From assembly GCA_965613365.1 (NCBI GenBank), contig CBFDVL010000001.1:1-38711 (forward strand): 38,711 nucleotides of DNA, read 5' to 3'. This document shows positions 3,008 to 15,925 of this stretch, piece by piece (the first letter of the stretch is position 1; the number at the start of each line of letters is the position of its first letter). A program made the translations under genes and the position numbers. The notes under the pieces were generated by a model, which was not told where the DNA came from, searched no databases, and worked only from the letters and a program-made list of their open reading frames with translations. The stretch comes from an uncultured archaeon. GTDB lineage: Archaea > Hydrothermarchaeota > Hydrothermarchaeia > Hydrothermarchaeales > CAZSVW01.

Positions 3008-6000
3008 TTAGCGGAAAGAAAATATTTTTTCTAAAACCTTTCTTTTTCCCTTCGCCTTCTCCAGAATCTCGGGAAGATTCCATACTGGTTTGAGCTTTAT
3101 CGCCTTGGTGGGACATACCTCTTCGCATTTTCTGCAACCTATGCAGAATAGGGCATTGTAGCTTATCTTTCCAAACCCATATGCTTTTTCTTCGGTAACT
3201 ATAACCTTCGCATGTTTTCTTTTAATTTTTTGAATTATCTCTATAAGCATTTTAATTTTTTCAGGTTTTTCTTCCATCGCTTCATACTTTTGCAAGTCTA
3301 TAACGCCAGAAAAAGTTAAGGCATCATCTGGGCAAACTTCTTCACAAGCTCTACATGCTATGCATTTTGTATTATCGCATTCAACCGTTACAAACCCGGG
3401 AAGCTCCTTTCTTTTAACCAAGGGTTCCCATTCTTTATCTATCTCTGTAACCTTAATCTCTCTCGGAGTTACCTTGTAGGATTCAAGAACATCGATAATC
3501 TTTTTAAGTTTCTCAATGTCCTCTCTTTCAAGATTAATATTCCTAATTCTACTCAAAAGTGTTTTAGCTTTTTCATTTTCCAGTAAAGATAGCGTTTTCT
3601 CAAGTCTTGCGAGAATTTCTTCTCGGGAAGGCTCAGATTCATATAAAGCCTTTATCTTAGCTATTTCCTGCTCATCCTTAAAGTGAAGAGCCTGAATAGC
3701 CCCTACTGGACATTCTGCTACACAAGCTCCGCATCCCTTGCAAAGAGCCTCGTTGATTTTTGCCACAATTTTACCAGAGTTATTAATTGTAAGCACAGGC
3801 GCATTGTAAGGACAAGCATCCAAACATACCCCGCAAGCAAGACAAAGTTCCTCATCGACCTTGGCGATACTTCCCTCTGCAATAACCTCTCCTTTAACAA
3901 GAGATATTAATGCGCGAGAAGCTGCTCCGAGAGCTTGGGATATACTATCCTGAATATTCTTTGGAAAGGAGGCAACACCACAAACATATATTCCCTCGGT
4001 GGCAAATTCCACCGGCTTAAGCTTGAGATGCGCCTCAAGGAAAAATCCATTCGCATCTAAGGGAACCTTAAGCATCTTAGAAAGCTCCTTATTTTCTTTA
4101 TGTGGAATTATAGGTGTTGAGAGCACAACTTTATCTACAATAAGCTTGACCTTTCGGTCAAGCGAGGGAGAATAAACCTCAATACTTAGCTTTTCTCCTT
4201 CCTTTTTGACCTCTGGGGGAGAATCTTCGCGGTATCTCAGGAATTTTATACCTTTTTCAAGAGCTAGGGAATAAAGCTCCTCTTCACCCTGACCAAAAGT
4301 TCTTATATCCCTGTAAATTATGAAGACCTCGCTATTGTTGAGATTTTTAATCTCTATCGCATTTTTTATTGCATTATAGCAACAAATTCTCCCACAATAT
4401 TGTCTTTCCTTATCTCTTGCTCCCACACAAAGTATTATCGCATAGCTTTTTTCAACTTTGCCTTTCTTTAATTCTTGCTCAAGTTCAAAAACCGTTATAA
4501 CGTCTTCATACTCTCCATAACCATAATGACCAAAAGGTTTAAGAATTTCTCCTCCGGTCGCTAAGATTATACTACCAACGGTTATTTCCTTATCCCCAAG
4601 CCTCACCTGAAAGTTTCCTACATAACCTGAGATATCCTTAATTGTGGTTGAAGCGTAAATTTCGATGTTTTCATGGTTTTTAACCTTTTCAATTAAAGAC
4701 TTAACAATTTCTTCTCCATTTTTAAGTTCTCTTGCTATTCCTCCAAGCTCTTTCTCCTTCTCCACGAGATAAACCTTAAATCCATGATTAGCTATGCTTA
4801 GAGCACAACTCATTCCCGCTACTCCTCCACCTATTACAAGAGCAGAGGGAGTAACGGGTATTCTGTAATCATGCAAAGGTTCTAACAACCTCGCCTTTGC
4901 TACAGCCATTCTTACTAAATCCTTGGCTTTTTCGGTAGCCTTCTCGGGCTCGTTCGCATGAACCCAAGAGACGTGTTCTCTAATATTGCACATTTCAAAT
5001 AGGTAGGGATTGAGCTTAGCCTCTTTCAAAGTTTTTCTGAAAAGAGCTTCATGCGTTCTTGGTGTGCATGCAGCTATAACAATGCGGTTTAGCTTATGCT
5101 CCCCTATCGCTTTCTTTATCTTCTCTTGAGAATCGATCGAACATGCAAAAAGGCAATCTTCAGCATGCTTTACATAAGGCAAGCTTTTAGCATACTCAAC
5201 CAGAGCTTTGCAATCAACTACGCCAGCGATATTTTTACCACAGTGGCAAATGAACACGCCTATCCTCGGCTCTTTGCTTAGCTCTTTTTCTGGTACCTCT
5301 TTCTCTTCTTCTTGTTTTTTCTCTGGTATGCCAAGAAGCTCGGAAACCTTTGCACTCGCAGAAGAAGCGAGAGCGACAGAATCGGGAATATCCCTCGGAG
5401 ATAAAGCTACTCCGGCTATAAATATTCCCTCTCTACTCGTCTCCATGGGTGAGAGGTCTATGTTTCTGGGCTTGAAAAAGCCGTATTCGTCGGTTTCTAT
5501 TCCCAAAATCTCCGCAAGTTTTCTATTATCCTTGGGAGCAACGAGCGCTGAACTCAAAACTACAAGCTCAACCTCTAACTCCTTAGTCTCGTTGCTCTCG
5601 GTATCCTCGTATCTAAGAATAAGATTGTTGTTTTCTGTTTCTATTATTCTGGAAACCCTGCTTCTTATGTATTTTATGCCATTCGCTTTTGCTTGCTGAT
5701 AATATTCTTCAAAGCCCTTACCATAAGCTCTTAAATCCATGTAAAAAATGTAGCTTTCAAGCTTTGGATTATGCTCCTTGGCTATCATAGCTTGCTTGGT
5801 TGCAAACATACAGCAAACCCTTGAGCAATACTTATTGCATTTAACATCTCTTGAACCTACGCATTGTAACCAAGCTATTTTCTTAGCTTCCCTACCATCA
5901 CTAGGTCTAACCACTTTACCTTGAGTTGGACCACTAGCTGAGAGCAAACGTTCAAATTGTAGCGAGGTTATAACATTTTTATAAACCCCATAGCCATATT

Positions 6001-6604
6001 CTGGCTTAGCCCTTGGGTCAAACTCCTCGAAGCCTGTAGCAACTATTATTGCACCAACGTTAAGCTCTACTTCTTCTTCACCAGCGTTGAAATCTATGGC
6101 ATCGGCTTCGCATACTAACGAGCAAAGCCTACAACCAATGCATGCTTCCTCATCTATCTTATAGACTAAAGGAAAAGCCTGAGGAAAGGCTACGTAAATC
6201 GCCTTTCTTGCTCCTAAGCTAAGGTCAAACTCGTTTTCTTTAACCACTGGGCAAACGTCAGCACATGCTCCACAACCCGTGCATTTCTCGGGGTCTACAA
6301 AGGTTTTTTTTCTTTTAACCTTTACCTTAAAATCTCCAGCTTTTCCCTTAACCTCAACGACCTCGGAATTAACGAAAACCTTAACATTTGCATGTCTTCC
6401 AACTTCGACCATTCTCGGAGCAAGAATACAGGTGGAACAATCATTTGTGGGGAAAGTCTTGTCAAGTCTTGCCATATTTCCGCCTATGCTTGGTGTTTTC
6501 TCCACAAGAAATACGTCGTAGCCCTTATCAGCTAAATCAAGGGTTGCTTGCATCCCAGCGACTCCACCGCCTATTACTAAGCAAGCTTTAACCTTGTTTT
6601 GCAT
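3008..6604 (-). CDS. hdrA: Giant HdrA-like flavoprotein (1198 aa): two tandem HdrA-type FAD units with ferredoxin domains and an extra C-terminal di-ferredoxin tail.
   Basis: Two GGGVAGM Rossmann motifs are present (N-terminus and about aa 600). HdrA-type signatures seen: DCSTCILAP, CSRVCC/CGRICC and GVFICHCGKNI. There are multiple CxxCxxCxxxC(P) motifs, including CIACRACEEVCP and CIGCRKCEEVCP in the tail. Confidence 0.85.
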   Translation of the reverse strand: MQNKVKACLVIGGGVAGMQATLDLADKGYDVFLVEKTPSIGGNMARLDKTFPTNDCSTCILAPRMVEVGRHANVKVFVNSEVVEVKGKAGDFKVKVKRKKTFVDPEKCTGCGACADVCPVVKENEFDLSLGARKAIYVAFPQAFPLVYKIDEEACIGCRLCSLVCEADAIDFNAGEEEVELNVGAIIVATGFEEFDPRAKPEYGYGVYKNVITSLQFERLLSASGPTQGKVVRPSDGREAKKIAWLQCVGSRDVKCNKYCSRVCCMFATKQAMIAKEHNPKLESYIFYMDLRAYGKGFEEYYQQAKANGIKYIRSRVSRIIETENNNLILRYEDTESNETKELEVELVVLSSALVAPKDNRKLAEILGIETDEYGFFKPRNIDLSPMETSREGIFIAGVALSPRDIPDSVALASSASAKVSELLGIPEKKQEEEKEVPEKELSKEPRIGVFICHCGKNIAGVVDCKALVEYAKSLPYVKHAEDCLFACSIDSQEKIKKAIGEHKLNRIVIAACTPRTHEALFRKTLKEAKLNPYLFEMCNIREHVSWVHANEPEKATEKAKDLVRMAVAKARLLEPLHDYRIPVTPSALVIGGGVAGMSCALSIANHGFKVYLVEKEKELGGIARELKNGEEIVKSLIEKVKNHENIEIYASTTIKDISGYVGNFQVRLGDKEITVGSIILATGGEILKPFGHYGYGEYEDVITVFELEQELKKGKVEKSYAIILCVGARDKERQYCGRICCYNAIKNAIEIKNLNNSEVFIIYRDIRTFGQGEEELYSLALEKGIKFLRYREDSPPEVKKEGEKLSIEVYSPSLDRKVKLIVDKVVLSTPIIPHKENKELSKMLKVPLDANGFFLEAHLKLKPVEFATEGIYVCGVASFPKNIQDSISQALGAASRALISLVKGEVIAEGSIAKVDEELCLACGVCLDACPYNAPVLTINNSGKIVAKINEALCKGCGACVAECPVGAIQALHFKDEQEIAKIKALYESEPSREEILARLEKTLSLLENEKAKTLLSRIRNINLEREDIEKLKKIIDVLESYKVTPREIKVTEIDKEWEPLVKRKELPGFVTVECDNTKCIACRACEEVCPDDALTFSGVIDLQKYEAMEEKPEKIKMLIEIIQKIKRKHAKVIVTEEKAYGFGKISYNALFCIGCRKCEEVCPTKAIKLKPVWNLPEILEKAKGKRKVLEKIFSFR

Positions 6605-7166
6605 TCAACCACCTTTCTAGCTCTTCTAAAGCTTTTTCCTTTTCTTGCTCTGAGCTTACCGCAGAGAGCTGGAGAATGAGCTCAATCAGCCTTCTTCTTT
6701 TTGGCGGAAGTTTTTCCGCCTCCTCGCTAAGCTTAATCTTTCTTGAACTTCTATATCTTAAGGGGGAAGCTCCAAGCTCTTTTATCTCCGCAACAAAATC
6801 TTCAACAACTCTCTGGAATTTTTTTCCTTCTGAAGCCGAAACCCATTCAAGCCTAAGCCTTTTTGGATTTATACCTATACTCTCCATTAAATTTCTTACA
6901 AACTCCACTCTTCTCTTTGCCATTAGATTTCCGGTTATGTAATGACATTCGCCTGGGTGGCAACCTGAGATTAAAACACCGTCAGCACCAGCAAGAAATG
7001 CTTCAAGGATAAAATTTATGTCTATTCTACCAGTACACATCACTCTTTGTATTCTTATGTTCGCTGGATATTGAAGTCTGCTAACCCCAGCCAAATCTGC
7101 TCCGGCATAGCTACACCAGTTGCAAAGAAAGGCAATGATTTTTGGTTGAAAGTTCTCATTGTTCAT
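6588..7166 (-). CDS. mvhD: MvhD/FlpD-like protein (methyl-viologen-reducing hydrogenase delta-subunit family).
   Basis: Reads IIAFLCNWCSYAGADLAG...RVMCTGRID...GADGVLISGCHPGECHY, the typical MvhD Cys pattern. It overlaps both neighbours (11 and 17 nt). Confidence 0.85.
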   Translation of the reverse strand: MNNENFQPKIIAFLCNWCSYAGADLAGVSRLQYPANIRIQRVMCTGRIDINFILEAFLAGADGVLISGCHPGECHYITGNLMAKRRVEFVRNLMESIGINPKRLRLEWVSASEGKKFQRVVEDFVAEIKELGASPLRYRSSRKIKLSEEAEKLPPKRRRLIELILQLSAVSSEQEKEKALEELERWLNAKQG

Positions 7167-9036
7167 CGTTCATCCTCCTTACTTTTTCAACATATCTTTT
7201 TGCCTCATATCCAAAAAGATATAGAGACTCAACTTTTTTACCCAATCCTATTTCTTCTAAGATAGCGTTAGCCAGCTTGACCTGAGTTTCAGCATATTCG
7301 TTACCTTTTAAATAATGACATCCTCCTTCTCCACAGCCTGTTATCAAAACCTTCTCTGCTCCAAGCTCAATGGCTTTGAGAATTTCAACCACAGAGAGTC
7401 TGCCAACACAAGGCAAAGGAACGGGCAAAATATTCGCTGGATAAGTATAGCCTAAGGCTCCGGCCATGTCTATAGCCGAGTACCCACATTCATAGCAAAC
7501 AAAATTTACAATTGGCTTCTCTATCTCTGTATCTTTGAGAAGTCCCTCAAGATATGCAAATGTTTCTTCTTTGTTATTGAGCGGTAACTCAATTGCATTA
7601 TAAAGGCAGGAAGCAAGGCATATTCCGCAAGCTTTACATTCAAGTTCATTTATCTTTGCTTTGCCATTGCTCATTATAATAGCGTTGTGCGGGCAAACCT
7701 TAGCACATATTTCACAACCAACACAAAGTTTCTCATTTACTCTTGCAGAAGCTTTTTTCTCCTCGAGACTTTTCAACATTTTTATTACCTTTGCTACAGC
7801 TGCCTCGCTTTCTGCTATGCGTTCTTCTTCATCCTTTATACCGGTTGCACCTCCGCATACATATACTCCAAGCTTTTTAGTTTCCACTGTTCTGAGTTTT
7901 GAATAAAGCCTTTTAAAGAAACCATATTTGTTTAGCTCAATTCCTAAAATCTTCGCAAGTCTCCTATTGTCCTTCGCGGGTATAAAGGCACTTGCCAAAA
8001 CCCCAAGGTCTGCTTTAATATTAATAAAATCCTGAGTTAGGGTATCTTCGATTGCTATAAGCAAATTTCCATTCTCTGAAGCTATTGAGGAGGGCTTGCC
8101 ACGAATAAATCTTATTCCGAGTTCTCTTGCTTCCTTGAAATATTTTTCATTTTTCCCATAGGTTCTTATATCCATGTAGCAGATGATAACGCTTGCCTTG
8201 GGGTTCGTTTTTTTGATCTCGATCGCATTTTTTATAGCTAATGTGCAACAAATCTTAGAACAATACTCATGATAGCTATCTCTTGACCCAACGCATAAAA
8301 TAAAAACGACTTTTTCTATGTCTTTGAGTTTTTCTATGTCTTTATCTTTATACAAGATCTCTGCAAGCTCGCTCTGGGTTATAACATTTTTATAAACCCC
8401 ATAGCCATATTGCTTTATTTCATAGGGTTTCCATTCTTCAAAGCCTGTAGCAACTATTATTGCACCAACGTTAAGAGTTTTTTTAACACCATCGTTTGAG
8501 ATTAGTACTTTAAAATTACCCGCAGAACCAGAGATCTCTTCAATCTCAGAGCTTTCAACAACGTACGAAGTATAACCAAGGTTTTTGAGTTTTAAATTTG
8601 CGTGAAGACCTTCTTTTGTATTACCTATTATGAGAACGCTTTTTTTTACTTTTGATTCCTCAGAGTCAAAAGCAAAGGTTTTAGACTTTTTTATTTTTTC
8701 GATGCCCGCCTTTATTAGCGCCTTTGCTTTTTTGTTTGCCTCTATCTTATTGTCTCTATGAGGATAGGCACATTGCTCTCTTATATTCACGAATTCTAAC
8801 CTAGCTTTCGCATGTCTTTTAAATCTCTCTCCATAAATCTGGGGAGAGCAGGCAGAGATTACAATTTTCTCTTCCTTGCATTTGCTTAACTCTTGCAAGC
8901 CTTCCTTAAGGCAAAGGTTATTGTGGATTTTTACAAATTCCACACCCTCTATACCTTTAATATACTCCGCAATCTCCTCAAGGTTGAGAACCTTTGAAAT
9001 CTCGCCATTACATGAGCAGAGAAAAACGCCTACCAT
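7156..9036 (-). CDS. HdrA-like protein with a degenerate dinucleotide-binding motif, a C-terminal 2x[4Fe-4S] ferredoxin and a fused MvhD domain.
   Basis: The N-terminal domain reads MVGVFLCSCNGEI. IIGNTKEG stands where the paralogues have IIGGGVAG. The ferredoxin motifs are CVGCEICAKVCP and CKACGICLASC. The C-terminus (FVCYECGYSAIDMAG...CVGRLS...ITGCGEGGCHY) is MvhD-like. Confidence 0.8.
   Translation of the reverse strand: MVGVFLCSCNGEISKVLNLEEIAEYIKGIEGVEFVKIHNNLCLKEGLQELSKCKEEKIVISACSPQIYGERFKRHAKARLEFVNIREQCAYPHRDNKIEANKKAKALIKAGIEKIKKSKTFAFDSEESKVKKSVLIIGNTKEGLHANLKLKNLGYTSYVVESSEIEEISGSAGNFKVLISNDGVKKTLNVGAIIVATGFEEWKPYEIKQYGYGVYKNVITQSELAEILYKDKDIEKLKDIEKVVFILCVGSRDSYHEYCSKICCTLAIKNAIEIKKTNPKASVIICYMDIRTYGKNEKYFKEARELGIRFIRGKPSSIASENGNLLIAIEDTLTQDFINIKADLGVLASAFIPAKDNRRLAKILGIELNKYGFFKRLYSKLRTVETKKLGVYVCGGATGIKDEEERIAESEAAVAKVIKMLKSLEEKKASARVNEKLCVGCEICAKVCPHNAIIMSNGKAKINELECKACGICLASCLYNAIELPLNNKEETFAYLEGLLKDTEIEKPIVNFVCYECGYSAIDMAGALGYTYPANILPVPLPCVGRLSVVEILKAIELGAEKVLITGCGEGGCHYLKGNEYAETQVKLANAILEEIGLGKKVESLYLFGYEAKRYVEKVRRMNDEQ
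8243..8475. repeat. Copy A of a 233-bp, 100% identical direct repeat shared by two adjacent HdrA-like genes.
   Basis: A base-by-base comparison with 9493-9725 (offset exactly 1250 bp) shows no mismatch. Flanking bases differ on both sides (8242 t vs 9492 g; 8476 a vs 9726 c). Confidence 0.95.
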
Positions 9037-10259
9037 TACCTTAAGTCCTCCATCACATTTATAGCTACTTGAGACGCTTGAGTAATGCTTTCAGGCACAT
9101 CTTTTATGCCTGAGGCACAACCGCAAACATATACCCCTGCTCTTGCCTTTCCACCATTTTCTGTTATGATAAATCCATATTCATCTTTATTTAGACCTAA
9201 AAGCTTTGCTATTTCTTCTGTCCCCTTTGATGGGATTAAAGCAGGGGTTAGAACTACCAAATCGCACTCTATAAGCTTAACCTCATTGCAAAGCGTATCT
9301 TCTACGCTCACTAAAAGCTTCTTATCTTCTCTTTGAATGACCTCTCCAGGCTTGCCTCGAAGGAATTCTACACCTTCCTCTCTTGCTCGTAGATACCACT
9401 CCTCATATTCACCTACGGTTCTTATATCCATGTAGCAGATTATGACTTCCTTGCCAAGCTTTTTTAAAGCTCTCGCATGCTTTATCGCATAGGTGCAACA
9501 AATCTTAGAACAATACTCATGATAGCTATCTCTTGACCCAACGCATAAAATAAAAACGACTTTTTCTATGTCTTTGAGTTTTTCTATGTCTTTATCTTTA
9601 TACAAGATCTCTGCAAGCTCGCTCTGGGTTATAACATTTTTATAAACCCCATAGCCATATTGCTTTATTTCATAGGGTTTCCATTCTTCAAAGCCTGTAG
9701 CAACTATTATTGCACCAACGTTAAGCTCTACTTCTTCCTCGCTTTGCTCAAGGTTTATGGCTCCTTGCTTGCATACTTCAACACAAGCCTTACAATGGCT
9801 ACACTTATTAATATCAATAGTGCAAACCTGAGGCAATGTTCTATAATCAAAATAAATAGCACCGCTTTTACAAACTTCAATGCAAGCCTTACAGAGAGTG
9901 CATTTATTAATGTCTATGTAACGAGGATGTTTTATCAGCCTAACTAGAAAATTTCCTTTTTCCCCTTTCACTTCGGCTAAGGAAGTATTGGTTAGGATGT
10001 CAAGATTTTTAATCTCGCTTAGACTCAAACGATAGAAGCACTTTCTTATGCCTTTAAGAAATTGTGGCGAAGCGAGACAAAAGGAACAATCTTTGGTGGG
10101 GAAATATTCATATAAGTTCAAAGCATTTCCACCAAGATAGGGCTTTTTCTCAACGAGATAAACTTCAAAACCAAGCTCCGCTAATTCTATGCTTGCTTGC
10201 AGTCCGGCTACTCCTCCACCAATAATGAGGACTTTTTTATTCATGCTTTCATTTTTCAC
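9036..10259 (-). CDS. hdrA: HdrA-like FAD (TrxR-like) unit with an inserted 2x[4Fe-4S] ferredoxin.
   Basis: Contains VLIIGGGVAGLQASIELA, DCSFCLASP, CTLCKACIEVC, CSHCKACVEVC and CSKICC. Its stop overlaps the next gene's start as TAATG at 9034-9038. Confidence 0.8.
   Translation of the reverse strand: MKNESMNKKVLIIGGGVAGLQASIELAELGFEVYLVEKKPYLGGNALNLYEYFPTKDCSFCLASPQFLKGIRKCFYRLSLSEIKNLDILTNTSLAEVKGEKGNFLVRLIKHPRYIDINKCTLCKACIEVCKSGAIYFDYRTLPQVCTIDINKCSHCKACVEVCKQGAINLEQSEEEVELNVGAIIVATGFEEWKPYEIKQYGYGVYKNVITQSELAEILYKDKDIEKLKDIEKVVFILCVGSRDSYHEYCSKICCTYAIKHARALKKLGKEVIICYMDIRTVGEYEEWYLRAREEGVEFLRGKPGEVIQREDKKLLVSVEDTLCNEVKLIECDLVVLTPALIPSKGTEEIAKLLGLNKDEYGFIITENGGKARAGVYVCGCASGIKDVPESITQASQVAINVMEDLR
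9493..9725. repeat. Copy B of the 233-bp identical direct repeat.
   Basis: Identical to 8243-8475. Both copies encode ...NVGAIIVATGFEEWKPYEIKQYGYGVYKNVITQSELAEILYKDKDIEKLKDIEKVVFILCVGSRDSYHEYCSKICCT. Sub-blocks of 35 and 47 nt recur at 5965-5999 and 6029-6075 in the 1198-aa gene. Confidence 0.95.
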
Positions 10260-10268
10260 AATTATTTA

Positions 10269-10793
10269 TCATGATTTATCATTATTGAAAATCGCGCAAG
10301 CTTTAGAAGGCCTGTCATGATTTGATAATCCGAGTTCCTTTGCAATCCTTCTTACTTCCTGCTTTGTTATGCCAAGCTCCGCCAACGGACTTCTTATTCC
10401 AAGTTCTCTCAAAGCTTTTATTCCCGGTCTATGGGAGTGCAAATCATCCTTGTTTGTTCCATCGACTATTGTTTTTATTCCTCTATCTCTTGCGATTTTT
10501 ATAATGTTTTGCATCATGGCCTTTTTGCAATAGTAACATTTTTTATCCTCGCTTTTGTAGAATTCCTCTGGTAGCTTGTGTTCAAATATTATAAGCTCTA
10601 TTCCGATCTCTCTCGCAATCTTTATGGCATGCTCAAGTTCTTCTAATGGAAGAAGCTCGGAAATTGCAATAGCTGCAACCGCATTACCTTTCAAAACATC
10701 AAAGGCAACCTTGGCAACTACACTGCTATCCACACCACCAGAAAAGGCAACGAGCACAGAGGTTTTATCTCGAAACCATAAGAAAAGCTCCAT
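10269..10793 (-). CDS. PP-loop ATP pyrophosphatase of the LarE/COG1606 type (sulfur-transferase family), unusually short.
   Basis: Contains VLVAFSGGVDSS (SGGxDS PP-loop), CYYCKK, VDGTNKDD and RPSKAC. The protein stops about 8 aa after the LarE-type PSxAC cysteine, at 174 aa, where family members as I recall them are about 260 aa. Confidence 0.65.
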   Translation of the reverse strand: MELFLWFRDKTSVLVAFSGGVDSSVVAKVAFDVLKGNAVAAIAISELLPLEELEHAIKIAREIGIELIIFEHKLPEEFYKSEDKKCYYCKKAMMQNIIKIARDRGIKTIVDGTNKDDLHSHRPGIKALRELGIRSPLAELGITKQEVRRIAKELGLSNHDRPSKACAIFNNDKS

Positions 10794-10799
10794 GTTTAA

Positions 10800-10825
10800 C
10801 TTTTTTATATCTTGGATATAAAAAG
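10800..10825. promoter_or_regulatory. Palindromic AT-rich element in a 37-bp divergent intergenic region; candidate back-to-back TATA boxes.
   Basis: Reads cTTTTTTATATC-ttg-GATATAAAAAg, with 8-bp perfect arms (TTTATATC/GATATAAA), centred at 10813. That is 20 nt from the ATG at 10793 (minus strand) and 18 nt from the ATG at 10831 (plus strand). Each TATA-like arm sits about 21-31 nt upstream of one start codon. Confidence 0.5.
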
Positions 10826-10830
10826 TTTAA

Positions 10831-11886
10831 ATGATGCTTTACCTTGTAAGATATGACGAAATAGCTTTGAAGTCCGAGCATGTAAGAAAAAAATGGGAAG
10901 AAGTTTTGATAAAAAACATAGAGCAAGCAATAGATTGCAGCATAAGTAGAGAAAGGGGAAGAATCTGGGTTTATAGCGAAGATGAGAAAGCTAAGGAAAA
11001 GCTGAGAAAAATCTTTGGAATTACATCTTTTTCTCCTTGCATAAGCTGTGAGCTTGGCAATTTAAAGCATGAGGCTATGAAATTTGCTGGGGAGGTTTTA
11101 AAGGATAAGAAAAGCTTTGCCCTTCGTGTAAAAAGAGTAGGTAAGCATAGCTTCACCTCAATAGATGTAGCAAGAGAGCTTGGAGAAGAGATAATAAACA
11201 AAATTCCAATAAAAGTAGATTTAAAATCTCCAGAAAAGGAAGTTTTCATAGAAATTAGAGAAAACCGATGCTACATCTACGATGAGATTATACCTGGAGT
11301 CGGAGGACTGCCTCTTGGGGTAGAAGGGAAGGTAATCTCTCTATTCTCTGGAGGGATAGACTCGGGCGTTGCGACTTGGTTAATGATGAAAAGAGGCTGC
11401 GAGGTCATGCTTGTGCATTTTTATATAAGCAAAGAGAGCTACGAATCCGCATGCCTATGCTATGAGGTTTTAAAAGAATATAATCCCGAGCTTAAGCTTA
11501 TAAAGATCGAGCATTCTGATTTTCTAAGGAAAATTGATAAGCAAAATTATACGTGCATACTATGTAAGAGAGAGATGCTGAGAAAGGCTCAAGAAATAGC
11601 TATTGAAATAGGAGCTAAAGGAATAGTAACGGGAGACTCTCTTGGTCAGGTAGCTTCTCAGACCCTTGATAATCTATTTGTGATAAGCCAAGCTATTTAT
11701 TACCCAATCTACAGACCTCTGATAGGAATGGACAAACAGGAAATTATTTCGCTTGCCAGAAAAATCGGAACCTACGAGAAATATCTCGAAGCTCCTCAGC
11801 TTTCTTGTCCATATGCTCCAAAGAAACCCGTGGTAAAGGCAGAGCTTGATAAGGTTTTGGAGATTGAGAAATGCTTAAAGAGGTAG
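10831..11886 (+). CDS. thiI: tRNA 4-thiouridine/thiamine sulfur-transfer protein ThiI (THUMP plus PP-loop, no rhodanese domain).
   Basis: Contains YDEIALKS..., the LFSGGIDSGV PP-loop, CILCKREM (CxxC) and a third Cys in LSCPYAPKKP. This matches the three-Cys archaeal ThiI type. Confidence 0.85.
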   Translation: MMLYLVRYDEIALKSEHVRKKWEEVLIKNIEQAIDCSISRERGRIWVYSEDEKAKEKLRKIFGITSFSPCISCELGNLKHEAMKFAGEVLKDKKSFALRVKRVGKHSFTSIDVARELGEEIINKIPIKVDLKSPEKEVFIEIRENRCYIYDEIIPGVGGLPLGVEGKVISLFSGGIDSGVATWLMMKRGCEVMLVHFYISKESYESACLCYEVLKEYNPELKLIKIEHSDFLRKIDKQNYTCILCKREMLRKAQEIAIEIGAKGIVTGDSLGQVASQTLDNLFVISQAIYYPIYRPLIGMDKQEIISLARKIGTYEKYLEAPQLSCPYAPKKPVVKAELDKVLEIEKCLKR

Positions 11887-11888
11887 AG

Positions 11889-12545
11889 ATGATAAAATCT
11901 GGGAAAAAGTTGAAAGATTATATTGCAGAGGATATTAGGTTTAAGCTTGTAATAAATGGCAAAAGCTTTACCTTCAGAATATCGCCCATGCTCAAGGAGG
12001 AGTTTGTCATAGGATATTGCTTTGGAGAAGGTCTTATAGAAGACCTTGAGGATTTTAAGGAAATAAAAATTGAAAAAAATGTAGCCAAAGTTAAAATTAA
12101 TATTAAAAAGAGGAAATTATCCAAAATAAACTCTGATCTGGTTGTATCCTACAAAGAAATAATCGAAAGCATGGAAAGACTTAAAAACGAATCAGAAACC
12201 TGGAGGAAAACCGGTGGAGTGCACATTTCTGCCATTGTTAGCGGGGAAGAGTTTATTTTGGTGGAGGATATTAATAGACATGCATGTATAGATAAGCTTT
12301 TGGGAATAGCTTTGAAAAGGAGCTTAAAGTTCTCAAACTCCTACGTGGTTTGCAGTGGAAGATTATCCGAAGGGAGAGTTAAAAAGATAATTATGGCGGG
12401 CGTGCCAATAATTGCTTCGATGGCAGCGCCTTTATTCTCTAGTGTCGAATGCGCAAAAAAATATGGGCTAACTCTCGCAGGTTTTGTGAGAAATGGAAAA
12501 ATTAATATATATTCTTGCCCTGAAAGAATTAGAAACGAGGTGTAA
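11889..12545 (+). CDS. fdhD: FdhD-family protein (Mo-bisPGD sulfuration/insertion accessory) lacking the CxxC loop.
   Basis: Contains FVIGYCFGEGLI, TGGVHISA, NRHACIDKLLG, CSGRLS and LTLAGFVR. The ATG at 11889 is preceded by GAGGT; an alternative in-frame ATG lies at 11871. Confidence 0.75.
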   Translation: MIKSGKKLKDYIAEDIRFKLVINGKSFTFRISPMLKEEFVIGYCFGEGLIEDLEDFKEIKIEKNVAKVKINIKKRKLSKINSDLVVSYKEIIESMERLKNESETWRKTGGVHISAIVSGEEFILVEDINRHACIDKLLGIALKRSLKFSNSYVVCSGRLSEGRVKKIIMAGVPIIASMAAPLFSSVECAKKYGLTLAGFVRNGKINIYSCPERIRNEV

Positions 12546-12547
12546 AA

Positions 12548-12985
12548 ATGGAAGTGGAAGGATTTGAACTTAGGGAAGATTTGTACTATGACCCATGGGG
12601 CGCATACATTTGGGCTAAGGTTGAAGGAGACATGGTAATTGTAGGAATAACCCCGTTAGGAGTAGCGGTTGCAAAAGACTTTGCTTATATGGAGCTTCCT
12701 TTTGAGGGGGATGAAGTCAAGCAAGAAGAAGCCTTCGGAGTAATTGAAACGATCAAAGCCACGGGTGAGCTTCTTGCTCCAGTTAGTGGAGAAGTGGCAG
12801 AGGTAAATGAAGAGGTAAGAAGCGACCCTGCAAGCATAAAAGAAGCACCTTACGAAAAATGGTTAATCAAAATAAAGCCTTCTAACTTGGAAGAGGAACT
12901 TAAAAACTTAATGGACTTCGAAAAAGCCAAAGAATGGTATGCTGAAGAAATTAAAAAGCTTAGAGAAGACGAAGTAATAGAATAA
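12548..12985 (+). CDS. GcvH-like lipoyl-carrier protein.
   Basis: Contains GVIETIKATGELLAPVSGEVAEVNEEV...PYEKWLIKI, the GcvH lipoyl-lysine signature (E-x-x-K ... PVSG-x-V-x-E-x-N). GAGGTG precedes the ATG. Confidence 0.8.
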   Translation: MEVEGFELREDLYYDPWGAYIWAKVEGDMVIVGITPLGVAVAKDFAYMELPFEGDEVKQEEAFGVIETIKATGELLAPVSGEVAEVNEEVRSDPASIKEAPYEKWLIKIKPSNLEEELKNLMDFEKAKEWYAEEIKKLREDEVIE

Positions 12986-13123
12986 TTCTTTTCTTTTTTA
13001 TTATTTTAGAAAATATATTTCTAAAAGAGTGAAAAGAAGCATTTTAAATTTAATTTAATCAAAAGATTTAAATAGGTTTTAGATATAAGTTAAATAATAC
13101 CGGTGAAGGAGGTGAAGTGTCGG

Positions 13124-15925
13124 ATGAGCGAAAATTTTTCGGAATTTATGAAAGACAGAGCTAAGGTGTTTAAATTTCTTTCGGCAATCTACAGAGACGA
13201 AATACCAAAAGAACTTCTAAGTAAGATGAAGGATGAGAAATTTTTGACAGCGATTTCAAAGGTTCCCGGAGGAGAAAAACTCGCTGAAGTTATGAAAGAT
13301 GCAGATGTAGATAAGGTTTTTAATGAGCTTAGATATGAATATGCAGATATCTTTTTGAATGCTGGTGTAACTCCAGTTTTTCCATACGAATCAGTTTACG
13401 TAACCGGCGAACCATTAGTAATGCAAAAGCCAGTTTTTGAAGTAAGAAAATTTTTCAGAGAGGCTGGAGTACATAAATCAGAAGACTACCCTGACTTAGA
13501 TGACCACATTGCAGTAGAATTTGAATTCATGAGGTATCTCTGTGAGAACGAGAAAGTAGAGCTACAGGCAAACTTTGTGGCCGAGCATTTCAAATGGATG
13601 AAGGACTTCTGCGACAACCTGAAGAAATATTCTCAAGCAGATTTCTACAAGGCTGTAGCAGAATTAACTGAAAGCATAGTTTCAATGGAAGAGAAAATAG
13701 TAGATGACATAAAAAATTCTAAACTTCCAGAAGCATCAATTGTAGATGCAATAAAAGCTATCGCAGAAGCAGTGAATGTACTTGACATTGGAGATGAATA
13801 TGTAACCATAAAAGAGGGAGCCAAGCCTGAGGAACCAGAAAAGATAATAAATACTCATTGCTATCTCTGTGGTGGATTATGCGGCCTGAGAATAACAGTG
13901 AAAGATGGCATAATGGTAAAGGTCGCTGGCTTACCAGGAGACCCAAAAAGTGGAGGAATGATATGTCCGAAGGGAGCTTCGAACATACAGCACACTTATA
14001 GTGCCTATAGATTAAAGTGGCCTCTAATAAAAGAAAATGGAAGGTTTAGAAAAGCTACTTGGGAAGAAGCTATGTCAAAGTTTGCAGAGTTGCTCAAGAG
14101 TATAGAACCTTCAAAGGTAGGCTTCCTGAGAGGCAATAATTTCAATGCTTGGCTAACTGCGGGCGTTTTCAAAGCCTATGGAGCTTATGTAACTACCCAT
14201 AGGCCAATGTGCGATAACAGCATAAGAATGGCCAATGAACATAACCTTAATGACAAGAGACCATGGATAGATTATAGGGAGTCTGATTATATCATTCTCT
14301 GGGGAGTAAATGAAACGTGCACTTCCTATGGAAGAAGGAAAGTAAAGTTCTTCCAAGACGCTCTCAAGAGAGGAGCAAAACTTGTGGTATTTGATACAAG
14401 GAAAAGCGAGGTTGCAGAGCTTGCAGATGAATGGATCGCTCCAAAGCCTGGCACAGATGGCGCAATAGCAATGGCAATGTGCTATGTGATAGTGAAGAAT
14501 GAGCTTTACAATAAAGAATTCGTTGAAAACTGGACATATGGTTTTGAGGACTTCAAGAAAAGATTACTTGGTGAAGAAGATGGAGTGCCAAGAACTCCGG
14601 AATGGGCTGAAAAGATAAGTGGCGTGCCAGCAGCTACGATAGAAAGAATAGCAATAGAATTTGCAAACGCAAAGCATCCAGCAACAATATGCTGGGCAGG
14701 TATAGCCCAGACTCCAAATGGATTCTATGCTACACAGGCAATAATGGCATTAAATGGATTAATGGGGACATTTGATGCACCCGGAGGGCCAAGCCTACCA
14801 TTCAAGCGCAAGCTAAAGAGCCCATTTGGAGATGGGCCCAAGCTACCAAACAACTCACCAAAGGAAAAGCTTGATAAGGCAAAGATGTGGGCTGGATGGA
14901 TTCCCGCATACTTCCCGAGGGATGTTGAGGAAGGTAAGCTTCAGGCTTTGGTATGCTATTGGGGTTCTCCAGTATTGTCATGGACTAATCAAGACGCCGC
15001 AATAGAAGCTCTCAAGAAGCTTAAATTCATAGTGACGATAGACGCTTTTATGAATAACACCGCAACACTGAGCGACCTCGTAATTCCAAGCGTATCGAGC
15101 TTAGAAATGGAGTGGATCCATCCAGATTGGTTATATGATGCCTTCATATCTTCGCATAGAAGAGCAATAGACCCGCTATTCAATTGCAAGCCAGAATGGT
15201 GGATCTTCATAGACTTGGCTAAGAGACTCGGATTTGGAGAATACTTCCCATCCGATGACATAGAATACTACCTCAGAAACATGCTAAAAGGTACGCCATG
15301 GGATTATGATGAACTCATGGAAAAAGGCTATATAATAACGGATAAGGCAGAATACTACAAATACAAGAAGTGGGGTAGCCTTAATCCACCAGAAGGTTAT
15401 GGCTCATCAGGCAAAACCAAGACGGGCAAATATAACTTCAAGAATCCAGTAGCAGAGGAAAAGGGCATAGACCCGCTTCCAGACTACAAGCCTATCGAAG
15501 AAGAGTATCCAGAGCTTGTACCCGACGAGAAGTATCCACTTATTGCTCAGAGCTTTAGATTGTTGCAACATGAGCATAGCTCAACCTTTAATAATCCATA
15601 CTTAATGAAACTTAGAGGAACAAATCCACTTTGGATTAATCCTCTAGATGCCAAGGAGAGAGGAATCGAGAACGGAGATAAGGTGATAATCGAATCTCCA
15701 TGGGGCAAGGCAGAAGCTACCGCTTATGTAACATGGAAAATTAGACAAGGTGTAGTAGGTGCTGCGGGCGGCTTTGGACACTGGCGTGGATTAGAAGCAG
15801 ACCCAAGGTTCCCGCAGTATGGTGGATTTAACATCGGCGGACTAATGCCTCCGAACTATCCAGATAAATATGGCGGAAATCCTCTCTTGAAATACATAAA
15901 AGTGAACGTCAGAAAAGCAGAGTAA
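13124..15925 (+). CDS. Fusion protein: a TorD/DmsD/NarJ-type chaperone domain (about 230 aa) joined to a molybdopterin (MopB/DMSO-reductase superfamily) catalytic subunit.
   Basis: N-terminal part: RAKVFKFLSAIYRDE...ELRYEYADIFLNAG...PYESVY...DDHIAVEFEFMRYL (TorD-like). This is followed by HCYLCGGLCGLRI...ICPKG (an N-terminal CxxCxxxC...C 4Fe-4S motif), a candidate Mo-ligand Cys in THRPMCDNS, and a MopB C-terminal barrel (INPLDAKERGIENGDKVIIESPWG). No RRxF twin-arginine motif is visible. The ATG at 13124 follows GAAGGAGGTGAAG. Confidence 0.8.
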   Translation: MSENFSEFMKDRAKVFKFLSAIYRDEIPKELLSKMKDEKFLTAISKVPGGEKLAEVMKDADVDKVFNELRYEYADIFLNAGVTPVFPYESVYVTGEPLVMQKPVFEVRKFFREAGVHKSEDYPDLDDHIAVEFEFMRYLCENEKVELQANFVAEHFKWMKDFCDNLKKYSQADFYKAVAELTESIVSMEEKIVDDIKNSKLPEASIVDAIKAIAEAVNVLDIGDEYVTIKEGAKPEEPEKIINTHCYLCGGLCGLRITVKDGIMVKVAGLPGDPKSGGMICPKGASNIQHTYSAYRLKWPLIKENGRFRKATWEEAMSKFAELLKSIEPSKVGFLRGNNFNAWLTAGVFKAYGAYVTTHRPMCDNSIRMANEHNLNDKRPWIDYRESDYIILWGVNETCTSYGRRKVKFFQDALKRGAKLVVFDTRKSEVAELADEWIAPKPGTDGAIAMAMCYVIVKNELYNKEFVENWTYGFEDFKKRLLGEEDGVPRTPEWAEKISGVPAATIERIAIEFANAKHPATICWAGIAQTPNGFYATQAIMALNGLMGTFDAPGGPSLPFKRKLKSPFGDGPKLPNNSPKEKLDKAKMWAGWIPAYFPRDVEEGKLQALVCYWGSPVLSWTNQDAAIEALKKLKFIVTIDAFMNNTATLSDLVIPSVSSLEMEWIHPDWLYDAFISSHRRAIDPLFNCKPEWWIFIDLAKRLGFGEYFPSDDIEYYLRNMLKGTPWDYDELMEKGYIITDKAEYYKYKKWGSLNPPEGYGSSGKTKTGKYNFKNPVAEEKGIDPLPDYKPIEEEYPELVPDEKYPLIAQSFRLLQHEHSSTFNNPYLMKLRGTNPLWINPLDAKERGIENGDKVIIESPWGKAEATAYVTWKIRQGVVGAAGGFGHWRGLEADPRFPQYGGFNIGGLMPPNYPDKYGGNPLLKYIKVNVRKAE

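Follow-up and report, generated by a model that had tools for sequence, protein, structure and literature searches.

Gene content of the locus

We analyzed a stretch of 38,711 nucleotides (nt) from an uncultured archaeon (contig CBFDVL010000001.1; hereafter, the window). Nine of its genes, between positions 3008 and 15925, encode a set of HdrA/MvhD-type electron-transfer proteins, a LarE-like protein, ThiI, FdhD, a GcvH-like protein, and a molybdopterin oxidoreductase (MopB) fused to a TorD-type chaperone domain (TorD::MopB). An earlier note on this DNA had proposed that HdrA and MvhD exchange electrons with the Mo-enzyme in a soluble complex, acting on a sulfur or other small substrate presented on a protein or lipoyl carrier. 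The identities it gave to the nine genes were each confirmed by Pfam and NCBIfam profiles (Table 1). The window contig is archaeal, as it encodes HerA, NurA, Rad50, Mre11, RFC, and GyrB and has a GC content of ~37%; its closest named relative is a contig labeled Candidatus Hydrothermarchaeota (L023).

Table 1. Genes and intergenic features of the locus (positions in the window; aa, amino acids)
Position	Strand	Feature	Basis
3008..6604	-	Tandem ("type II") HdrA, 1198 aa, two flavin adenine dinucleotide (FAD) modules	Pfam/NCBIfam, PDB 5odc alignment
6588..7166	-	MvhD-like [2Fe-2S] electron-transfer protein, 192 aa	FlpD PF02662, 2.8e-56
7156..9036	-	Fusion of HdrA N-terminal-domain/thioredoxin-reductase-like part, 2x[4Fe-4S] ferredoxin, and MvhD, 626 aa	Pfam/NCBIfam
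9036..10259	-	HdrA FAD core with inserted ferredoxin domain, 407 aa	Pfam/NCBIfam
10269..10793	-	Short LarE-like PP-loop ATPase, 174 aa	TIGR00268, 180.7 bits vs cut-off 150
10794..10830	.	Near-perfect 37-bp palindrome, divergent promoter region	Between two start codons
10831..11886	+	Archaeal-type ThiI: ferredoxin-like, THUMP, and PP-loop domains; C242xxC245, C326; without rhodanese	
11871..12545	+	FdhD, 224 aa, catalytic cysteine loop deleted	TIGR00129, 181.2 bits vs 140.9; PF02634, 172.9 bits
12548..12985	+	GcvH-like lipoyl-carrier protein, 145 aa	PF01597, 102.8 bits (above cut-off)
12986..13123	+	Intergenic: terminator-like poly-T tract, TATA-like TTTAAATA box, GGAGGTG Shine-Dalgarno site, then ATG 13124	
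13103..15925	+	TorD::MopB fusion, likely start ATG 13124, 933 aa (P0001)	Pfam/NCBIfam, alignments

Operons and promoters

The five genes of the minus strand are spaced by a 9-nt gap (LarE-like gene to hdrA) and then by overlaps of 1, 11, and 17 nt, the 11-nt overlap being that between the start of the MvhD gene and the stop of the gene upstream. They therefore form one operon, with the LarE-like gene first. On the plus strand, thiI, fdhD, and gcvH (10831-12985) show a 16-nt overlap followed by a 2-nt gap. Within the palindrome between the two arms, two TATA-like TTTTTATATC boxes stand back to back at 21-30 nt from their respective ATGs, an arrangement implying that both divergent transcripts are leaderless. 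The same palindromic divergent arrangement is present in the related contig L082 and, in a looser form, in L023 and L084. The best-supported description is one of three separable units that are brought together only in one small archaeal clade; two of them, the larE-hdrA operon and thiI-fdhD-gcvH, would be co-regulated.

Upstream of mopB, the poly-T tract, the TTTAAATA box, and the Shine-Dalgarno site are kept in all the clade contigs compared (4/4). These elements suggest that mopB has its own promoter and is not driven by the palindrome, and it is probably a separate transcription unit behind the terminator-like tract. The mopB gene has a strong Shine-Dalgarno site, in contrast to the divergent operons, which are apparently leaderless. 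Thus, of the claim that two arms are arranged around one palindromic promoter, the palindrome stands, but mopB probably does not depend on it.

The TorD::MopB protein

The protein combines three MopB domains scoring above the Pfam cut-offs (PF00384, 121 bits; PF01568, 61 bits; PF04879, 45 bits) with an N-terminal redox enzyme maturation protein domain of the TorD/NarJ type (PF02613 Nitrate_red_del, 85.9 bits vs 22.2, residues 60-170), so the fusion described previously is correct. TorD (PDB 1n1c) matches this N-terminal domain at 6.6e-13. The domains binding the bis-pyranopterin guanine dinucleotide (bis-PGD) cofactor are present, as is the motif of the FS0 [4Fe-4S] cluster (C253, C256, C260, and C288), whose HCxxCxxxC...C pattern is invariant across the TorD::MopB family. 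The predicted Mo/W ligand, C370, aligns with the cysteine of the PsrA SVSLC motif, the Mo ligand Cys173. No twin-arginine motif of a twin-arginine translocation (Tat) signal was found in MopB, and its N-terminus is the TorD domain itself; the enzyme is therefore predicted to be cytoplasmic. The fusion is present in all of the 120 listed homologues that cover the N-terminus, the exception being the partial sequence P0080.

The best match by sequence was PsrA of Thermus thermophilus PsrABC (PDB 2vpw, 2.6e-60), which was also the best match by structure (28% identity, TM score 0.75 normalized to the target). None of the NCBIfam equivalog cut-offs was reached by MopB (PhsA, 270 bits vs 694). The second-best sequence match was acetylene hydratase, also a stand-alone enzyme, which carries a catalytic Asp13 after the second FS0 cysteine. 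This identity was rejected because MopB has a Gly at that position (HCYLCGGLCG).

The TorD::MopB family and its usual neighbors

The TorD::MopB architecture is found in hundreds of proteins, with ~55% identity across domains, mostly from metagenome-assembled genomes (MAGs) of Desulfobacterota. Scanning one genome per species, we found it in at least 576 species genomes, mostly belonging to Desulfobacterota and Archaeoglobaceae. Among the carriers are the isolate genomes of Desulfofustis glycolicus DSM 9705 and Dethiosulfatarculus sandiegensis SPR, and a MAG assigned to Desulfocapsa sulfexigens. Within a limited literature search, no description of the fusion family or of the window cluster was found.

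The gene neighborhoods were compared by tblastn of all nine window proteins against the best 80 TorD::MopB loci, including flanks of at most 10 kb per side. The full HdrA/MvhD/ThiI/FdhD/GcvH set was present in one of the 79 other loci, namely that of L023, which belongs to the same clade. The idea that the two arms co-occur across related genomes was thus not supported beyond the clade. Indeed, neither ThiI nor FdhD was detected near TorD::MopB outside the clade in these best 80 loci; one other locus had a LarE-like match, one had a distant GcvH-like match, L013 and L032 had marginal matches to short HdrA fragments, and, apart from L016 (see below), the remaining loci had no match. The only HdrA gene near TorD::MopB outside the clade was that of the bacterial locus L016, 6 kb away in a separate gene block, with five genes, one of which is on the other strand, between HdrA and MopB. 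In view of the many HdrA paralogues that Desulfobacterota carry, the proximity in L016 was treated as chance.

Clustering the flanking open reading frames (ORFs) revealed other recurrent neighbors. A TauE/SafE permease was found within 4 kb in 29/70 informative loci and in five of the six Archaeoglobaceae-type loci. Bacterial loci carry a receiver-only response regulator directly upstream of mopB, plus histidine kinases and a sigma-54-type regulator; in Desulfobacterota, the cassette consists of the receiver-only response regulator, MopB, a (GAF) histidine kinase, the TauE permease, and a small membrane protein (e.g., L078, 1286-7712, in D. glycolicus DSM 9705). The cassette of Archaeoglobaceae is LysR-MopB-TauE, and this is the layout of the nearest archaeal relatives of the window protein (67-69% identity). 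In the neighbor-joining tree, the MopB of the window clade nests inside this archaeal MopB-TauE group, which indicates that the gene context of the window is derived.

A ferredoxin-motif ORF was present within 4 kb in only 6/70 loci, and a beta/gamma subunit is not conserved; the missing beta/gamma subunit is therefore a trait of the whole TorD::MopB family. The earlier note was right that the Mo-enzyme has no dedicated electron-transfer subunit, and this holds family-wide. The consistent linkage of the enzyme to classical beta/gamma subunits elsewhere, which it had named as evidence against its own proposal, was not seen in these loci, where TauE and regulators recur instead. As a separate observation, a region of L007 (15460-20477) downstream of the fusion gene encodes a second MopB paralogue of 703 aa without TorD, together with a dedicated beta subunit (Fer4_11), a flavoprotein of the GltD-like NAD(P)H type, and a further receiver protein.

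The HdrA/MvhD operon

The tandem HdrA starts with an HdrA core without the N-terminal domain (residues 7-430). Then, a second HdrA follows, with an N-terminal FeS domain (residues 444-602) and a C-terminal ferredoxin domain (residues 824-988). Behind this second HdrA comes one more 2x[4Fe-4S] domain, with its cysteines at 1081-1091 and 1154-1164. When aligned to Methanothermococcus HdrA (PDB 5odc, chain A, 2.6e-232), residues 7-370, 444-602, and 824-988 map to residues 145-511, 2-160, and 487-650, respectively. This three-piece alignment indicates a fused pair of complementary HdrA units, corresponding to the double HdrA described as "type II" or tandem (PMC12054007; PMC9012536). As for the poly-ferredoxin tail attributed to this protein, extra ferredoxin is indeed present, but it amounts to just one additional two-cluster domain.

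The proteins encoded at 9036-10259 and 7156-9036 look like a split version of the tandem pair. The FlpD domain occurs in two window proteins, the MvhD-like one (6588-7166) and the 7156-9036 fusion. In this fusion the GxGxxG FAD motif is degenerate (IIGNTKEG), while it is intact in the other three HdrA modules, which suggests that the split pair contains one flavin-free subunit. The two genes of the split pair also share a 266-nt direct repeat (8210-8475 and 9460-9725, 95% identical) that encodes an identical stretch of ~80 aa in both proteins and looks like the result of a recent gene conversion between HdrA paralogues.

The HdrA core (FAD/thioredoxin-reductase-like and FeS domains) and the MvhD that an HdrABC-MvhD module requires are thus both encoded. 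All our negative results on partner genes refer to the scanned proteins of the window. Among these, the CCG domain (PF02754) had zero matches, and no input module (MvhAG hydrogenase, FdhAB, FrhB, NuoF-like) lay beside the operon; more generally, no gene for HdrB/C (CCG), hydrogenase, FrhB, FeS beta subunit, or membrane anchor was found anywhere in the window.

Tandem HdrA homologues in other lineages have ~1000 aa, are 50-55% identical to the window protein, and are common in Bathyarchaeia, Asgard archaea, Methanocellales, Theionarchaea, and Hydrothermarchaeota. The extra C-terminal ferredoxin tail is limited to P0204 and P0205, i.e., to the window clade. In 6/6 other lineages, the tandem HdrA is flanked by a CCG (HdrB/D-like) protein and MvhD, with a variable input module: FrhB in L091 and L172, [NiFe] hydrogenase in L174, and, within the Bam-like cluster of L161, an AOR-type tungsten enzyme. 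In L089, FwdB/D-like genes are ~5 kb away from the tandem HdrA, and in L173 a homologue of FrhB is encoded a few kb downstream. GcvH, ThiI, and LarE were not found beside the HdrA homologues in any other lineage examined. As both a CCG protein and an input module are missing, the window operon is a real orphan, as the earlier note had stated of HdrBC and hydrogenase, and MopB is the sole adjacent redox enzyme.

Directly downstream of the operon there are a DDE transposase gene (1456-2449, possibly frameshifted) and an MNT-type nucleotidyltransferase gene (2647-2943); possibly, this region (1456-2943) marks a site of rearrangement at which the gene of an earlier partner might have disappeared. 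The Bam-like cluster of L161 (1130-10696; also in L149 and L162) comprises a PaaX regulator, an AOR-family tungsten enzyme, a ferredoxin, a CCG protein, tandem HdrA, and MvhD-ferredoxin, and is adjoined by a divergent fdhD and an fmdE-like gene.

The sulfur-family genes

The assignment of three neighboring proteins to families that mobilize or carry sulfur proved sound. The LarE-like protein covers only model positions 11-172 of 259 and is devoid of the C-terminal domain. Retained in it are the SGGVDS motif, C86xxC89, and C166, which aligns with LarE Cys176, and the protein ends eight residues after C166; LarB and LarC were not found in the window. ThiI exceeds its equivalog cut-off (TIGR00342, 326.8 bits vs 264.5) and matches PF22025, PF02926, and PF02568.

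The FdhD of the window was described as Cys-less, and the alignments agree: E. coli FdhD residues ~104-153, i.e., the loop with the sulfur-relay Cys121/Cys124, are unmatched, and there is a deletion of ~25 residues relative to Bathyarchaeota FdhD, which has SACGSG there. In a search of 5.8 billion proteins and a metagenome scan, this loop-less FdhD was confined to the window clade. The GcvH-like protein scores just under the NCBIfam cut-offs (110.4 vs 117; 92 vs 115.85), and its K70 aligns with the lysine in the VESVKATSD motif of pea H-protein, the lipoylation site. GcvP/T/L genes were absent from the window.

We also inspected the neighborhood of fdhD in 78 loci with canonical FdhD. A full-length LarE-like gene lies directly upstream of fdhD in five of them. 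In L098 (1034-2736) and L126 (369-2074), it overlaps the canonical fdhD by 4 nt, with a TtuA-like PP-loop gene opposite, and the two genes are predicted to be translationally coupled. In L124 (7974-10765), a cysteine desulfurase gene lies between the LarE-like gene and fdhD. Both HdrA and TorD::MopB are absent from these five loci; FdhD with PP-loop sulfurtransferases therefore appears as a recurring sulfur-trafficking neighborhood. The coupling hints at a possible unrecognized sulfur-delivery route for Mo-cofactor sulfuration in anaerobes. For the window, we infer as the simplest reading that larE, thiI, and fdhD would handle cofactor and thionucleoside sulfur, with FdhD serving the adjacent Cys-ligated MopB. 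Given the recurrence elsewhere, cofactor maturation and sulfur trafficking would fit the sulfur genes better than a carrier-presented substrate.

Synteny and recombination within the clade

The arrangement of larE divergent from thiI-fdhD-gcvH-mopB is found in three sublineages. The first includes the window, L081, and L092. The second includes L082 and L083, with identities to the window of 67% for FdhD, 94% for GcvH, and 78% for MopB. The third includes L084, L085, L093, and L023 (FdhD 52-53%, GcvH 78-79%, HdrA core 51%, MopB 89-91%); a complete HdrA arm is also visible in L023. The collinearity with L082 does not stop at the cluster but takes in unrelated housekeeping genes (Nudix, XPD helicase, HerA, NurA), so this copy says little on function. 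In L084 and L023, the cluster is kept and the downstream flank is different; for L084, this is modest evidence for the integrity of the cluster.

The mopB gene is a mosaic. Residues 8-67 of its product are 98% identical to L082; from about residue 128, identity is 77-100% to L084 (reaching 90% or more in the majority of 60-residue blocks) vs 57-92% to L082. All the genes flanking mopB are closer to L082, and the MopB phylogeny is incongruent with that of its neighbors. This pattern indicates a recombination that affected mopB alone, independently of its neighbors.

Interpretation of the locus

On the whole, with a probability of about one half, we read the locus as a clade-specific juxtaposition of three separable units, and not as a demonstrated single machine. 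Based on homology and gene context, the following roles can be proposed. MopB would be a Mo/W-bisPGD enzyme of the PsrA/PhsA type, soluble and monomeric, that carries its TorD-type maturation chaperone as a cis fusion. The cassette with a TauE/SafE-type anion permease found elsewhere and the lack of an FeS or membrane subunit suggest that, most likely, the enzyme has a small transported anion as its substrate, probably a sulfur compound, and that its FS0 cluster exchanges electrons with a soluble carrier such as ferredoxin. The thiI-fdhD-gcvH genes and the larE-like gene would constitute a sulfur-trafficking and cofactor-maturation set, in which the handling and sulfuration of bis-PGD for MopB would fall to FdhD; as this FdhD has no cysteine relay loop, the sulfur would need to come from partner proteins. 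Lastly, larE-hdrA-hdrA/mvhD-mvhD-hdrA(tandem) would encode a flavin-based module that lost its CCG and input subunits, gained an extra ferredoxin domain, and probably feeds or drains a ferredoxin-level pool. A link between HdrA and MopB in this clade would be at most lineage-specific, and as likely indirect as physical.

Several points weigh against three separable units. The whole arrangement is kept in L084/L023 at 51-53% FdhD/HdrA identity and with another downstream flank, which points to some selection on the cluster. The genes of an HdrA module usually adjoin those of its partner, and here no redox enzyme other than MopB is close by. The two arms are also not fully independent, because the LarE-like gene, which elsewhere accompanies fdhD, is transcribed here together with the HdrA genes. 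Moreover, we know of no precedent for either a ThiI with a THUMP domain or a lipoyl protein taking part in the maturation of the Mo cofactor.

The orphan state of the HdrA operon is the strongest argument for a different explanation, namely that HdrA/MvhD and TorD::MopB form a soluble complex wired via the extra ferredoxin domain and/or MvhD, coupling a Mo-centre reaction on a sulfur substrate, possibly carried by the GcvH-like protein, to flavin-based electron bifurcation or confurcation. Indeed, all six homologous clusters have CCG and input partners, and here MopB is next door. The restriction of the ferredoxin tail to the clade and the synteny retained among clade members with different flanks are also consistent with a complex, and pterin enzymes do operate on HdrA/MvhD elsewhere, as in Fdh-Hdr (PDB 7bkb), in type II HdrA with a molybdopterin oxidoreductase (PMC12054007; PMC9012536), and in the Bam-like AOR and tandem HdrA cluster of L161. 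However, no association was seen at other TorD::MopB loci, the closest archaeal relatives included, and the HdrA of L016 is 6 kb off. As MopB is ~55% identical across domains, its substrate and partner are probably the same everywhere, and thus TauE-linked rather than clade-specific. Furthermore, mopB probably has its own promoter behind the terminator-like tract and recombines independently of its neighbors. Bifurcation needs three redox partners, of which one candidate is present, and the known precedents (Fdh-Hdr, type II HdrA with molybdopterin oxidoreductase and FdhB, and Bam) all keep a CCG/HdrB-type subunit. We consider such a complex unlikely. Somewhat less probable still is its most far-reaching version, in which a type II HdrA/MvhD discarded HdrBC and its usual input, acquired the extra ferredoxin domain, and became hard-wired to TorD-fused MopB, yielding a new bifurcating/confurcating molybdoenzyme complex where the Mo site (possibly with the lipoyl GcvH-like protein) replaces heterodisulfide reduction.

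The absence of the association outside the clade would also fit an adjacency without functional meaning, where ThiI (tRNA 4-thiouridine) and the GcvH-like protein (glycine cleavage) are housekeeping, FdhD serves other Mo/W enzymes, the HdrA partners are encoded elsewhere, and the synteny reflects limited divergence. The ThiI score above the equivalog cut-off, its tRNA-binding THUMP domain, and the collinearity of L082 into Nudix, XPD helicase, HerA, and NurA point in this direction. We regard it as improbable, though, because both operons are tightly packed with overlaps, the shared promoter region is conserved, the cluster persists in L084/L023 despite the changed downstream flank, and the cysteine loop of FdhD is missing specifically in the clade that has the window gene context.

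Least probable of all is a functional unit made of the divergent pair (HdrA/MvhD with LarE; ThiI-FdhD-GcvH) that works in an sHdr/LbpA-like manner with protein-bound sulfur on the lipoyl carrier, MopB being a mere neighbor: the palindromic promoter joins exactly those two operons and leaves mopB to its separate promoter, no other small gene in the cluster is as conserved as the GcvH-like one (78-94% identity), whose lipoyl lysine is kept, and Hdr-like systems reportedly use GcvH-like LbpA proteins, but the window has no HdrB/HdrC (CCG), TusA/DsrE, lipoate-ligase, or LipS genes, HdrA homologues of the other lineages examined were never found with GcvH, ThiI, or LarE, and the LarE-FdhD linkage occurs elsewhere without HdrA.

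Whichever reading holds, the TorD::MopB-TauE family and the LarE-FdhD linkage are more robust leads than an HdrA-MopB complex. The cassette of TorD-fused cytoplasmic MopB and TauE represents a large family, strongly conserved and found in sulfate-reducing and sulfur-disproportionating Desulfobacterota and in Archaeoglobaceae.

Comparison with known systems

MopB shares with PsrA/PhsA (T. thermophilus PsrABC, 2vpw) the FS0 motif and the aligned Mo-ligand Cys (C370 here). Unlike PsrA, it has no Tat signal, has TorD fused, and is predicted to be cytoplasmic; the PsrB (4x FeS) and PsrC (membrane) partners are missing here, and 64/70 family loci are without a ferredoxin-motif ORF within 4 kb. Proteins of the TorD/DmsD/NarJ type are separate and bind the Tat leader of their client, whereas in the window the chaperone is fused in cis to a client without a Tat leader.

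Compared with the E. coli FdhD/IscS system (PDB 4pde), the FdhD fold and the C-terminal cofactor-binding part are conserved, and the window FdhD lies beside a Cys-ligated MopB; it lacks the cysteine loop, however, and its neighbors are PP-loop sulfurtransferases and not a cysteine desulfurase. The sHdr-LbpA sulfur-oxidizing system has sHdrB1B2C1C2, TusA/DsrE, and lipoate-assembly genes beside LbpA. The window resembles it in that HdrA-type flavoprotein genes adjoin a GcvH-like lipoyl protein and sulfur-transfer proteins, but HdrB1B2C1C2, TusA/DsrE, and dedicated lipoate-assembly genes were not found among the window proteins scanned. In the class II benzoyl-CoA reductase BamBCDEFGHI, tandem HdrA-like and MvhD-like subunits work on a pterin (W) enzyme. 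The window likewise has tandem HdrA-like and MvhD-like subunits near a pterin enzyme; nevertheless, BamB belongs to the AOR family and not to MopB, and Bam has a CCG protein (BamD) and NuoEFG-like subunits, both of which are lacking here.

The MOLY cluster of sulfur disproportionators comprises MolyA, MolyB, and a chaperone of the TorD/DmsD type, and thus, like the fusion family, combines a PsrA/PhsA-type MopB with a TorD-family chaperone in Desulfobacterota (PMC12998232). Identity with MOLY was rejected, since its A, B, and chaperone proteins are separate and its enzyme is predicted to be extracellular (PMC12998232), while here the chaperone is fused, there is no B protein, and the enzyme appears cytoplasmic.

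In anaerobic methanotrophic (ANME) archaea and methanogens, type II HdrA clusters with a molybdopterin oxidoreductase, FdhB/FrhB, MvhD, and HdrBC (PMC12054007; PMC9012536). As in those clusters, the window has a fused double HdrA with complementary domains, MvhD, and a MopB-family gene adjoining HdrA. It differs in having neither HdrB/C/D (CCG) nor FdhB/FrhB, in the extra ferredoxin domain of HdrA, and in the position of mopB, on the opposite strand to the HdrA genes and probably with its own promoter. The MopB of the window is PsrA-like, with Cys ligand and FS0 intact, whereas theirs is FdhA-like with a predicted loss of catalysis (PMC12054007; PMC9012536).

In the Fdh-HdrABC-MvhD supercomplexes of methanogens (e.g., PDB 7bkb), the bifurcating FAD of HdrA receives electrons from a MopB-family enzyme by way of FeS proteins and MvhD. 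The proposed coupling takes this mechanism as its template, although the FdhB, HdrBC, and true FdhA of these complexes are all missing in the window. The window locus would be nothing categorically new, but a variant of the known HdrA-plus-pterin-enzyme systems. If true, a coupling between HdrA and MopB would add a CCG-free, Mo-dependent branch to the HdrA-based electron-bifurcation systems.

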